This document shows positions 51,809 through 53,443 of a stretch of DNA of 64,000 nt, in pieces. Numbering within the stretch: position 1 is the stretch's first letter; every line of letters starts with the position of its first letter. This DNA comes from Escherichia coli. GTDB lineage: Bacteria > Pseudomonadota > Gammaproteobacteria > Enterobacterales > Enterobacteriaceae. The stretch lies in assembly GCF_016026235.1 (NCBI RefSeq), contig NZ_CP065613.1, one strand, 5' to 3'. A model generated the notes under the pieces. It made no database searches. It was not told the origin of the DNA and worked only from the letters and a program-made list of their open reading frames with translations. A program made the position numbers and the translations under genes.

Positions 51809-51818
51809 GCACGAAAAA

Positions 51819-51844
51819 GGCCGCAGAGTTTCACCCCTGCGGCC
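51819..51844 (-). terminator. ldr mRNA intrinsic terminator (copy 1; repeated at about 52302 and 52785)
   Basis: perfect stem ggccgcag/ctgcggcc followed by T5 on the minus strand. Confidence 0.55.
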
Positions 51845-51894
51845 TGGTCCGGGCGCAAATTGCCATTACGGCAGCCTGACGCCCGCATGACACG

Positions 51895-52002
51895 TTACTT
51901 CCGCTTGTTCAGCCAGTTCACGATCATACTGGCAAGAATGCCAGCAATGACCGGAGCCGCTAAATCATGCCAGAAGGCCATGCCCAGCTCTGCGAGCGTC
52001 AT
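51895..52002 (-). CDS. ldr: Ldr-family type I toxin peptide (35 aa), copy 1
   Basis: MTLAELGMAFWHDLAAPVIAGILASMIVNWLNKRK; conserved core FWHDLAAP and C-terminal NKRK resemble K-12 LdrD; the 80-aa track ORF is an in-frame upstream extension. Confidence 0.8.
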   Translation of the reverse strand: MTLAELGMAFWHDLAAPVIAGILASMIVNWLNKRK

Positions 52003-52050
52003 ATAGCCGCCTGTGTTGTAATGACAACGTTTCGCGGCTATTCTTGAATG

Positions 52051-52117
52051 GTCTAGATGCAAGAATGGCCCCCGTGATGTTGTCAGGTGCATACCTGCAA
52101 CGTGCGGGGGTTTTCTC
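52051..52117 (+). ncRNA. rdl: Rdl-like antisense RNA, copy 1 (approximate boundaries)
   Basis: plus-strand segment antisense to the ldr leader, ending in G-rich stem plus TTTTCTCTC; boundaries from memory of rdlD-like sequence, not verified. Confidence 0.35.
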
Positions 52118-52377
52118 TCTCCAGCAACCAATGCCACCAGGGATTAAGCCCCCGCAACATTGCGCCTCACCGGAATCCTTCCGGCTTATCGCTGATTCTA
52201 CGACTGTTTTTCTGTTCCGGAATCCGTCACGTCTTCACTCTGTGCTGCGCATTCCGCAGAATATTATCCGCTTGCAACCGTTGCATTTTTCTTACGAAAA
52301 AGGCCGCAGAGTTTCACCCCTGCGGCCTAGTCCGGGCACAAATTGCCATTACGGCAGCCTGACGCCCGCATGGCACG

Positions 52378-52485
52378 TTACTTCCGCTTATTCAGCCAGT
52401 TCACGATCATACTGGCAAGAATACCAGCAATGACCGGAGCCGCTAAATCATGCCAGAAGGCCATGCCCAGTTCTGCGAGCGTCAT
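52378..52485 (-). CDS. ldr: Ldr-family type I toxin peptide, copy 2
   Basis: peptide identical to copy 1. Confidence 0.8.
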   Translation of the reverse strand: MTLAELGMAFWHDLAAPVIAGILASMIVNWLNKRK

Positions 52486-52533
52486 ATAGCCGCCTGAGTT
52501 GTAATGACAACGTTTCGCGGCTATTCTTGTATT

Positions 52534-52600
52534 GTTTGGATGCAAGAATGGCCCCCGTGGTGTTGTCAGGTGCATACCTGCAACGTGCGGGGGTTTTCTC
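52534..52600 (+). ncRNA. rdl: Rdl-like antisense RNA, copy 2 (approximate)
   Basis: 483-bp-shifted equivalent of copy 1. Confidence 0.3.
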
Positions 52601-52860
52601 TCTCCAGCAACCAATGCCACCAGGGATTAAGCCCCCGCAACATTGCGCCTCACCGGAATCCTTCCGGCTTGACGCTGATTCTACGACTGTTTTTCTGTTC
52701 CGGAATCCGTCACGTCTTCACTCTGTGCTGCGCATTCCGCAGAATATTATCCGCTTGCAATCGTTGCATTTTTCTTACGAAAAAGGCCGCAGAGTTTCAC
52801 CCCTGCGGCCTGGTCCGGGCGCAAATTGCCATTACGGCAGCCTGACGCCCGCATGACACG

Positions 52861-52968
52861 TTACTTCCGCTTGTTCAGCCAGTTCACGATCATACTGGCA
52901 AGAATGCCAGCAATGACCGGAGCCGCTAAATCATGCCAGAAGGCCATGCCCAGTTCTGCGAGCGTCAT
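52861..52968 (-). CDS. ldr: Ldr-family type I toxin peptide, copy 3
   Basis: peptide identical to copies 1 and 2. Confidence 0.8.
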   Translation of the reverse strand: MTLAELGMAFWHDLAAPVIAGILASMIVNWLNKRK

Positions 52969-53016
52969 ATAGCCGCCTGTGTTGTAATGACAACGTTTCG
53001 CGGCTATTCTTGAGTG

Positions 53017-53083
53017 GTCTAGGTTCAAGATTAGCCCCCGTGGTGTTGTCAGGTGCATACCTGCAACGTGCGGGGGTTTTCTC
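53017..53083 (+). ncRNA. rdl: Rdl-like antisense RNA, copy 3 (approximate)
   Basis: 483-bp-shifted equivalent of copy 1. Confidence 0.3.
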
Positions 53084-53443
53084 TCTCCAGCAACCAATGC
53101 CACCAGGGATTAAGCCCCCGCAACATTGCGCCTCACCGGAACCCTTCCGGCTTGCCGCTAATTTTACGATTGCTTTTTACTGTCAGCACTCGGCAATCTT
53201 CCTCATTGCGTGATGCCTTCCAGCTTAATTTCTTAATTTGCAATAGTTGCAGTTCATATCCGGGCTGACTCCAGACTGGTAGTGAAATGCGCAATTTTGT
53301 AGAATTGCGCCTCCTCGCGACCTCCCCAGTGAATCTGTTGCCTCATTTTTTACATACTGCGTATTCGACTTCTCCACCTGTTGCGCAAGAGAAACTGGGT
53401 TTATTCATTTTTGCGAGGCCGACTTCTTTCTGGACAGGACTTT

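Follow-up and report, generated by a model that had tools for sequence, protein, structure and literature searches.

A three-unit tandem ldrD/rdlD type I toxin-antitoxin array between bcsG and yhjV in Escherichia coli

In the 64-kb stretch of Escherichia coli DNA analysed here (the window), one tandem array is located between bcsG and yhjV, as given by the flanking ORFs and by the RefSeq annotation of a 99.8%-identical genome, which lists bcsG, three Ldr-family toxins (WP_001295224.1) and yhjV. Tandem Repeats Finder places it at 51811-53183, with a period of 483, 2.8 copies, 95% matches and no indels, and a repeat search finds three in-register copies beginning at 51811, 52294 and 52777. No other long-period tandem repeat is present in the window. 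The units are 95-98% identical to each other in the repeat search and the alignment. A first-pass annotation had described three tandem ldr/rdl units of ~483 bp at the bcsG-yhjV locus and had named self-alignment as the check on their periodicity; the periodicity is there, and repeat finding, Pfam, Rfam and the flanking genes all bear the description out. The layout is the following.

51811-52293, minus strand: unit 1, LDR-D type, bcsG-proximal, 483 bp, with ldr, rdl, ldr terminator and inter-unit spacer (Tandem Repeats Finder, alignment)
52294-52776, minus strand: unit 2, LDR-D type, middle, 483 bp (Tandem Repeats Finder, repeat search, alignment)
52777-53259, minus strand: unit 3, LDR-D type, yhjV-proximal, shared core 52777-53159 (alignments)
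52212-52293, minus strand: inter-unit spacer 1, 82 nt, a mark of multi-unit arrays (blastn against the K-12 loci)
52695-52776, minus strand: second inter-unit spacer, also 82 nt (same blastn comparison)

According to the alignments, unit 3 has only the promoter-proximal 383 nt in common with units 1 and 2. Its distal ~100 nt (53160-53259) are yhjV-side sequence that is also present upstream of K-12 ldrD, and across these 100 nt of the upstream region the internal units are ~55% identical to the terminal one. The inter-unit spacer has no counterpart at either K-12 ldr locus by blastn.

The three units encode the same peptide.

51895-52002, minus strand: ldr ORF of unit 1, 35 aa, MTLAELGMAFWHDLAAPVIAGILASMIVNWLNKRK (Pfam Ldr_toxin; identical to RefSeq WP_001295224.1)
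52378-52485, minus strand: ldr ORF of unit 2, same peptide, MTLAELGMAFWHDLAAPVIAGILASMIVNWLNKRK (ORF translation)
52861-52968, minus strand: ldr ORF of unit 3, same peptide, MTLAELGMAFWHDLAAPVIAGILASMIVNWLNKRK (ORF translation)

The peptide matches Pfam PF13940 (Ldr_toxin) at 1e-26 and 93.1 bits, residues 1-35 aligning to model positions 1-35, and it thus belongs to the Ldr/Fst superfamily over the full length of the profile. Members of the Ldr family are 35 aa long and have a single hydrophobic helix, which is followed by a conserved Trp and a basic C-terminus. In RefSeq, WP_001295224.1 is named "type I toxin-antitoxin system toxin Ldr family protein"; an NCBIfam HMM scan assigns the peptide to no family, which means only that NCBIfam holds no matching HMM. 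The first-pass annotation had the peptide differ from K-12 LdrD at many positions, but 34 of the 35 residues are identical to those of K-12 LdrD (MTFAELG...), the sole difference being F3L, to be compared with 15 differences from LdrA. An LdrD-group peptide at the bcsG-yhjV position identifies the locus as LDR-D and not LDR-A, LDR-B or LDR-C.

An antisense RNA gene is found on the other strand of each unit.

52051-52116, plus strand: rdl of unit 1, 66 nt long and facing the ldr 5′ UTR (RF01813 in Rfam, 82.9 bits, model 1-66 of 66)
52534-52599, plus strand: rdl of unit 2 (RF01813, 81.7 bits, model 1-66 of 66)
53017-53082, plus strand: rdl of unit 3 (RF01813, 89.2 bits, model 1-66 of 66)

What had been called a presumptive Rdl region is accordingly an end-to-end rdlD match in all three units, each scoring above the RF01813 gathering score of 50. 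The MFE folds reproduce the Rdl shape, a single-stranded 5′ tail followed by a long interrupted stem-loop and a U-tail, with −32.3 kcal/mol and a z-score of −4.5 for unit 1, and z-scores of −3.2 and −4.4 for units 2 and 3. In unit columns, Rdl spans 178-243 and the ldr ATG lies at 292, which leaves 48 nt between them. It is therefore encoded in cis opposite the ldr 5′ UTR, as is characteristic of LDR modules, leaving the ribosome-binding site and the start codon uncovered. The arrangement of K-12 ldrD/rdlD, with rdl opposite the 5′ UTR, is the same (PMC4147584). Each Rdl is fully complementary to its own ldr leader.

The predicted fold of the ldr transcript is very stable, with −181.7 kcal/mol and a z-score of −7.8, and its 5′ GGCGCAA pairs with the 3′ UUGCGCC. 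The leader also contains a short ORF.

52083-52160, minus strand: leader ORF of unit 1, 25 codons, MLRGLNPWWHWLLERENPRTLQVCT, in the ldr 5′ UTR (ORF listing)

The other two units have an identical ORF, at 52566-52643 and at 53049-53126, and Rdl overlaps its 3′ half. A coupled leader ORF, ldrX, has been hypothesized for these loci (PMC4147584, PMC8167048), and there are two candidates for it here, namely MLRGLNPWWHWLLERENPRTLQVCT and an in-frame upstream extension of ldr that is open from GTG 52137.

The signals for transcription and its termination are given next.

51818-51845, minus strand: ldr intrinsic terminator of unit 1, 11-bp stem with 8 GC pairs, T-run (terminator scan)
52301-52328, minus strand: ldr intrinsic terminator of unit 2, 11-bp GC-rich hairpin and T-run (terminator scan)
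52784-52811, minus strand: ldr intrinsic terminator of unit 3, 11-bp GC-rich hairpin and T-run (terminator scan)
52195-52200, minus strand: putative ldr −10 of unit 1, TAGAAT (read from sequence)
52678-52683, minus strand: putative ldr −10 of unit 2, TAGAAT (read from sequence)
53161-53166, minus strand: putative ldr −10 of unit 3, TAAAAT (read from sequence)
52016-52044, plus strand: putative rdl promoter of unit 1, TTGTAA-17 nt-TATTCT (read from sequence)
52273-52285, no strand: perfect palindrome TGCAA-N3-TTGCA upstream of unit 1 (3 matches in all against 0.20 expected)
52756-52768 and 53239-53251, no strand: further copies of the palindrome (pattern search)

The terminator hairpin that each unit was said to possess is found at all three ldr genes, and every unit has terminators for both ldr and rdl, the rdl sites being terminator-like. 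From the putative −10 element we infer an ldr transcript of ~375 nt. The putative rdl promoter ends 6 nt before the Rfam-defined 5′ end of Rdl, and its hexamers are invariant across the three units; with 8 of 12 consensus matches it is weak and falls under the scan threshold, and a sigma-70 consensus scan of 51700-53500 returned no promoter at threshold. The TGCAA-N3-TTGCA palindrome is kept between the two upstream sequence types, which otherwise diverge. We also considered this palindrome as a CytR site, since it fits one published consensus, but did not adopt this reading, which is mentioned only in passing; no flanking CRP sites could be seen by eye.

We now consider how the copies differ. 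The shared 383-nt core contains 20 variable sites, of which 14 are in the leader, 3 in the 3′ UTR and 3, all synonymous, in the ORF. The first-pass view that substitutions fall in the leader and not in the peptide holds for the majority of sites and for the unchanged peptide, but it overlooked the synonymous changes and those in the 3′ UTR. As possible causes, selection on the toxin and recent gene conversion had been named. For the former, the window ORFs differ by 3 synonymous and no non-synonymous changes, and the 38 sampled units contain 4 synonymous and 5 non-synonymous variants, the latter being rare except for M26L, which is present in 7 units, and the WP_001295224.1 peptide being the commonest allele species-wide (26 of the 38 units). 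Purifying selection on the toxin peptide thus has modest support from these counts, while conversion does not fare as well, as discussed below.

It is necessary to ask whether all three copies are functional. One possibility is that a single pair, at the position of the K-12 orthologue, is active and that the extra copies are decaying remnants. We consider this very unlikely, because all three ORFs are intact and differ only synonymously, each Rdl passes the Rfam threshold and retains its stem and terminator, the hexamers of the putative rdl promoter and of the putative ldr −10 element are conserved, and no difference separates the three copies of the 25-codon leader ORF. The upstream region of the internal units does differ from that of the terminal unit and lacks a convincing −35, and K-12 chromosomal hok/sok copies are often inactivated (PMC2887945). 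Against this, Fozo et al. found duplicated copies to be evolutionarily stable (PMC2887945), and the BL21(DE3) transcriptome paper drew on RNA data in assigning RdlD antisense RNAs to its three pairs (PMC5435950).

A second scenario is that a single ancestral ldrD unit was recently triplicated in this lineage and homogenized through gene conversion. The three identical peptides and the 95-98% identity of the units would fit, and Ldr loci have been described as evolving through lineage-specific tandem duplication (PMC2887945). Furthermore, ST131 and 2015C-3905 each have a neighbouring pair of near-identical units with 3 differences, which indicates for these two sampled genomes that local duplication or conversion does occur. 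However, the distances for the window array point the other way. Its units show 10-14 or more differences among themselves and only 5-6 to relatives elsewhere, often at other array positions, and 31 of the 34 array units compared have their nearest relative in another genome and not in their own array. On these nearest-neighbour distances recent gene conversion is rejected for the window array, and the closer relatives in other genomes argue for purifying selection on the peptide instead. In addition, the spacer is common to 61% of complete genomes and the shared peptide is the commonest allele of the species. Duplication of a K-12-type single unit could moreover not have produced the 82-nt spacer, as K-12 does not have it. 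The probability of this scenario is therefore small, slightly below that of the remnants. An assembly artefact, with the repeat collapsed or expanded, is practically negligible: although 483-bp repeats of 95-98% identity are hard for short-read assemblers, the units are distinguishable at 20 core sites, and the three-unit structure is repeated, unit by unit, in thousands of complete assemblies as well as in the complete genome of 99.8% identity.

We are thus highly confident that the array is a three-unit tandem ldrD/rdlD ("long direct repeat D") type I toxin-antitoxin module at its usual bcsG-yhjV site, made of old paralogue lineages and not of a recent triplication. On this reading the lineages recur across E. 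coli strains and have been reshuffled among positions via unequal recombination.

Among the closest known systems is the array of BL21(DE3), compared here through the BL21 derivative C43(DE3) (NZ_CP011938), which has the same locus, unit number, 483-bp period and spacer (100% match to a 96-nt query containing it). Two of its three peptides are identical to that of the window, while its bcsG-proximal unit encodes the K-12-type F3 peptide, and the Rdl 5′-tail alleles and their order differ. In K-12 there is one unit between bcsG and yhjV, as the first-pass annotation had stated. It shares with the window the flanking genes, Rdl, terminators, leader and yhjV-side upstream region, but it is single and has no inter-unit spacer. 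The K-12 unit is identical to C43(DE3) unit 1 over columns 91 to 483 and to C43(DE3) unit 3 over columns 1 to 216, and both flanks are identical across 300 nt. It looks like a collapsed array, consisting of the upstream part of a BL21-lineage unit 3 and the rest of unit 1. On this one comparison, of K-12 with a BL21 derivative, the K-12 single copy appears best explained by a deletion that joined the outer units of an array of three; recombinational replacement from a single-copy donor is a possible alternative.

K-12 ldrD/rdlD is the sole experimentally characterized member (Kawano et al. 2002, Mol Microbiol 45:333, as summarized in PMC4147584 and PMC8309996). Overproduced LdrD is lethal or growth-arresting, an effect that RdlD antagonizes (PMC4147584, PMC8309996), its NMR structure is available (PDB 5LBJ; PMC8309996), and the ldrD/rdlD overlap forms an RNase III-dependent dsRNA of ~21 nt (PMC7373196). 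For the window, the anatomy, the family membership and the spread in the population are shown by the sequence comparisons. By analogy with this published K-12 work, the F3L variant is presumably toxic as well, and the window units would be repressed in the same manner. Each unit would then be a self-contained module. Its minus-strand transcript of ~375 nt would begin with a long, strongly structured 5′ UTR, carry the coding sequence of Ldr, a membrane-active peptide of 35 aa, and stop at the terminator of the same unit. The 66-nt Rdl, transcribed from the plus strand across from this 5′ UTR, would pair with the leader and the duplex would be cut by RNase III. Translation of the toxin would probably be blocked indirectly, in a hok/sok-like way, through the leader ORF or the leader structure. 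For K-12 itself, the mechanism of Rdl repression has been called "currently unknown" (PMC8309996).

The likeness to hok/sok (with mok) concerns the proposed principle: the leader is long and structured, its transcript folds back with 5′-3′ pairing, and the antisense RNA acts on the leader instead of the start of the toxin gene, with a coupled leader ORF as the possible link. The toxins are different (Hok vs Ldr/Fst), and the coupling ORF ldrX is hypothetical. The ldr leaders score 27-29 bits against the Rfam sok model (RF01794), below its gathering score of 59, and the peptide matches Ldr_toxin only, so the likeness is in design and does not imply membership. Another known system is the K-12 ldrA/B/C-rdlA/B/C array (LDR-A, -B and -C, between kdsA and chaA), also a tandem triple with a 35-aa peptide and with Rdl of the same stem-loop architecture opposite the 5′ UTR. 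However, it is at another locus and has a 535-bp period, and the peptide of its subgroup, MTLAQFAMIFWHDLAAPILAGIITAAIVSWWRNRK, is identical to the window peptide at 20 of 35 residues. Fozo et al. trace the LdrB and LdrD groups to an old enterobacterial duplication (PMC2887945).

A third comparison, with ibs/sib, concerns the Rdl 5′ tail. This tail is single-stranded and covers 52051-52067, 52534-52550 and 53017-53033 in units 1, 2 and 3; variation between the copies clusters in it and in its complement within the ldr leader. Six of the 17 positions in this tail are variable, against 14 of 366 elsewhere in the core (Fisher p = 8e-5). Across 38 units the nucleotide diversity is 0.21 in the tail and 0.02-0.04 in the other unit segments, and ldr synonymous sites have a diversity of roughly 0.05 by a rough hand estimate from counts. 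The tail types of window units 1, 2 and 3 are GTCTAGATG, GTTTGGATG and GTCTAGGTT, and those of C43(DE3) units 1, 2 and 3 are GTCTAGAGT, GTTTGGATG and GTTTGGGTT. Predicted tail duplexes reach −28 to −30 kcal/mol when the pair is cognate, compared with −6 to −27 kcal/mol when it is not. The ibs/sib loci are likewise several near-identical cis-antisense pairs per genome, some in tandem (Han et al. 2010, PMC2943612), with repression between cognate pairs only, through small differences in the recognition regions (PMC2943612). The toxin and the RNA are unrelated to ldr/rdl, but the clustered tail variation resembles the Sib/Ibs recognition-region differences. Tentatively, the three Rdl/ldr pairs may be kept mutually orthogonal, each antitoxin preferring its own mRNA, with about seven old tail alleles maintained in E. 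coli and shuffled among positions. If true, this would account for multi-copy arrays persisting and not collapsing. The obvious alternative is relaxed constraint on an unstructured non-coding stretch. The clustering of copy variation in the tail, which could prevent cross-reaction of the pairs, is a mildly new point.

The triplication itself is not rare, as the first-pass annotation had implied. The spacer, a proxy whose matches are not each proven to be at bcsG-yhjV, occurs in 3304 of 5426 complete E. coli genomes (~61%), with a median of 2 and a maximum of 4 per genome. About 61% thus have at least two units here, and the median of two spacers corresponds to three units, which is the commonest multi-copy state. 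In an evenly spaced sample of 39 chromosomes, one unit was found in 16, two in 4, three in 17 and four in 2; these fractions derive from the spacer count and from two samples taken at even spacing, of 39 and 60 rows, and do not amount to a per-genome census. The overall range is one to five units per genome. RefSeq/PGAP annotates three Ldr genes at bcsG-yhjV in many strains, and three ldrD/rdlD pairs between these genes have been published for BL21(DE3) (Kim et al. 2017, Nucleic Acids Res, PMC5435950), so the three-unit array is an already known, annotated and published E. coli state. With one genome per species, an invariant 30-mer of the spacer gave one match only, a 503-bp contig of "Bacillus sp." with 0.66x coverage that is 96% identical to the array and probably a contamination; an exact 30-mer search is too strict to inform on other Escherichia species.

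The impact on annotation is small, as the locus is correctly recognized and its copy-number state is already on record. The results rather correct the perspective: in a species ranging from one to five units, the K-12 reference looks like a reduced form, and work on ldrD/rdlD in K-12 only misses the multi-copy state of ~60% of sequenced strains, BL21, ST131 and CFT073 among them. If the tail variation encodes pair specificity, these arrays would offer a small natural model in which to study how tandem cis-antisense pairs stay free of cross-talk, a modest question that can be tested.

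The array between bcsG and yhjV is a single tandem repeat at 51811-53183, for which Tandem Repeats Finder gives a period of 483, 2.8 copies, 95% matches and 0 indels, and a repeat search places the in-register copies at 51811, 52294 and 52777. No other long-period tandem repeat occurs in the 64-kb window. Together with translation, these searches bear out the three tandem units of about 483 bp, with identical 35-aa ORFs and terminators, that were described in the first-pass annotation. The Rdl genes, only presumptive there, are confirmed by three full-length matches to the Rfam rdlD family, scoring 82.9, 81.7 and 89.2 bits where the gathering score is 50.

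Features of the three units
51895-52002, 52378-52485, 52861-52968; minus strand; ldr ORFs, the same 35-aa peptide MTLAELGMAFWHDLAAPVIAGILASMIVNWLNKRK in all three
Directly 3' of each ORF; minus strand; ldr terminators, an 11-bp GC-rich hairpin followed by a T-run
52051-52116, 52534-52599, 53017-53082; plus strand; rdl genes, end-to-end matches to Rfam rdlD RF01813
52051-52067, 52534-52550, 53017-53033; plus strand; Rdl tail (nt 1-17), hot spot of between-unit variation
52273-52285, 52756-52768, 53239-53251; perfect palindrome TGCAA-N3-TTGCA, upstream of every unit

In each unit, Rdl faces the 5' UTR, with 48 nt separating it from the ldr start codon further downstream, the 3' end of the rdl match is a terminator-like hairpin, and the predicted Rdl stem-loops are stable (z -3.2 to -4.5). 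This anatomy, which is observed here directly, is the same as that published for ldrD/rdlD. The window also holds ES205 sRNA (6987-7058), GadY (12837-12950), naRNA4 (CssrE, 60999-61080) and a tRNA-Pro(CGG) on the minus strand (61173-61249); these RNA genes are consistent with a K-12-like gad-to-dpp chromosomal region.

The Pfam Ldr_toxin match spans the whole peptide (1e-26). One residue, F3L, separates it from LdrD of K-12 (MTFAELGMAFWHDLAAPVIAGILASMIVNWLNKRK), and not many positions as earlier stated; since K-12 LdrA, LdrB and LdrC differ from it at 15-17 positions, the peptide belongs to the LdrD group. Judged by the features open to in silico tests, the array belongs to the ldr/rdl (LDR-D) type I toxin-antitoxin family. 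In the closest complete E. coli genome, FDAARGOS_943 (99.8% over 2.4 kb), the annotation runs bcsG, three 'type I toxin-antitoxin system toxin Ldr family protein' genes (all WP_001295224.1) and yhjV, while in K-12 it runs bcsG, ldrD, yhjV, the single unit named in the first-pass annotation. Three units at this site are already on record, both in RefSeq annotation and in the literature, where Kim et al. 2017 (PMC5435950) describe three ldrD/rdlD pairs there in BL21(DE3).

In K-12, over-production of Ldr, a small peptide targeted to the membrane, halts growth, and the unstable cis-antisense RNA Rdl counters it (PMC4147584, PMC8309996); from the ldrD/rdlD overlap, dsRNA of ~21 nt arises in an RNase III-dependent manner (PMC7373196). 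By family membership and analogy with this work, the F3L variant predicted in the window would be toxic to growth when over-produced. Rdl would act indirectly, in a hok/sok-like mode, because it does not cover the ribosome-binding site. For the inferred ldr transcript (~375 nt), very strong structure is predicted (-181.7 kcal/mol, z -7.8), in which a 5' GGCGCAA pairs with a 3' UUGCGCC, recalling the fold-back inhibition of hok. The likeness to hok/sok is one of design only, as the ldr leaders (52000-52153, 52483-52636 and 52966-53119, minus strand) match RF01794, 'sok antitoxin (CssrC)', at 27-29 bits, below the gathering score of 59. These matches span all 157 model positions and may reflect a hok-like leader design or an oddity of the RF01794 model. 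A 25-codon leader ORF, the same in all three units, has its 3' half overlain by Rdl, and the ldr frame stays open upstream as far as a GTG at unit column 157; one of the two, this leader ORF or the GTG-started extension, presumably corresponds to the ldrX that Gerdes and Wagner put forward (PMC4147584, PMC8167048).

A promoter consensus scan of the array found no site at its threshold. The candidate rdl promoter inferred here, TTGTAA-17-TATTCT, leaves a gap of 6 nt to the Rdl 5' end; for ldr, the inferred -10 reads TAGAAT in units 1 and 2 as well as in K-12, and TAAAAT in unit 3. Upstream of this -10, the internal sequences (52194-52293 and 52677-52776) are only ~55% identical to the yhjV-proximal one (53160-53259, all minus strand). 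Because both the upstream sequences and the -10 differ in this way, the three toxin mRNAs may be transcribed at unequal levels. The palindrome TGCAA-N3-TTGCA is kept in both of these otherwise diverged upstream types, with 3 matches against 0.2 expected, and its third copy lies also ~195 nt upstream of yhjV. K-12 LDR-A/B/C units have TGAAA-N3-TTGCA instead. The same motif is given for the CytR operator in one published account (PMC3454398).

We now turn to the variation between units. The 383-nt core has 20 variable sites, of which 14 fall in the leader, 3 in the 3' UTR and 3, all synonymous, in the ORF; the earlier statement that substitutions lie in the leader and not the peptide is thus borne out in part. 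Selection on the Ldr peptide, also put forward earlier, is modestly supported by these counts (3 synonymous and 0 non-synonymous differences in the window). A sample of 38 units, extracted from 13 genomes, holds five non-synonymous variants; four are rare, and M26L, the fifth, occurs in 7/38 units.

Of the 17 sites in the single-stranded 5' tail of Rdl, 6 vary, against 14/366 elsewhere in the core (Fisher p = 8e-5). Across the 38 units the nucleotide diversity of this tail is 0.21, and that of the remaining segments 0.02-0.04; a hand estimate from variant counts puts ldr synonymous-site diversity at roughly 0.05. The alternative of relaxed constraint on an unpaired stretch has to be weighed against the suggestion that ldr/rdl pairs are kept distinct via their Rdl tails. 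About seven tail alleles recur, shuffled among array positions, and the tails are all different within the array in 8/10 independent arrays (the window and its near-twin FDAARGOS_943 counted once). Cognate tail-target duplexes are predicted at -28 to -30 kcal/mol, non-cognate ones at -6 to -27 kcal/mol. Most differences among K-12 RdlA, RdlB and RdlC likewise fall at tail positions 3-8, and the pattern can be likened to Sib/Ibs, where pairs are kept distinct (PMC2943612).

Successive units are joined by an 82-nt spacer (52212-52293 and 52695-52776) that neither K-12 ldr locus contains and that therefore marks arrays of more than one unit. Of 5426 complete E. coli genomes, 3304 (61%) are matched by a 96-nt query that includes the spacer, at 6980 places in total (median 2 and maximum 4 per genome). 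In an evenly spaced 60-row sample of this search, where n spacers mean n+1 units, 13 genomes have one spacer, 35 two and 12 three, that is, two, three and four units. A separate, evenly spaced sample of 39 chromosomes, taken from the whole-locus search, has one unit in 16, two in 4, three in 17 and four in 2. From both counts, three units appear to be the commonest multi-copy state, in roughly 35-44% of genomes, a frequency similar to that of the K-12-like single copy. Array-bearing strains include C43(DE3)/BL21, ST131, CFT073 (two units) and E2348/69. In the water isolate HET6 MIAE 10510, the bcsG beside the array (L010, its extracted locus, 1-809) is an annotated pseudogene with an internal stop, and the three Ldr peptides are all unlike one another (V28M, M26L and the common form). 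A 503-bp contig of 'Bacillus sp. EB106-08-02-XG196' (NZ_JABWSY010000055.1, coverage 0.66) is 96% identical to the E. coli array; its ldr array is almost certainly E. coli contamination.

Lineage-specific tandem duplication is described as the normal evolutionary mode of Ldr loci (Fozo et al. 2010, PMC2887945). Recent triplication or homogenisation of the window array is largely refuted, as its units differ at 10-14 or more sites among themselves and at 5-6 from units elsewhere. The recent gene conversion suggested earlier likewise finds no support, with 31/34 array units having their nearest relative in another genome and not in their own array; the exceptions are ST131 units 1 and 2, separated by 3 differences, and 2015C unit 2, a tie. 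This points to paralogue lineages of long standing that unequal exchange has shuffled. The closest relatives of the window units sometimes occupy another array position, unit 1 being nearest to ST131 unit 3.

Comparison of the K-12 locus (L002, 2010-2680) with the units of C43(DE3) (L004, 1607-3055) shows full identity of the K-12 unit with unit 1 of C43(DE3) over columns 91-483 and with unit 3 over columns 1-216, and both 300-nt flanks are identical as well. The K-12 single unit is thus an exact chimera of the BL21-lineage array, unit 3 upstream and unit 1 downstream. Since recombination of one outer unit with the other, deleting what lies between them, would leave exactly this chimera and identical flanks, K-12 looks like the recombinational collapse of a three-unit array. 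This is also the simpler direction, because a K-12-type single unit cannot give rise to the spacer. The point that is left, beside the variation of the Rdl tail, is that K-12 would be the reduced form.
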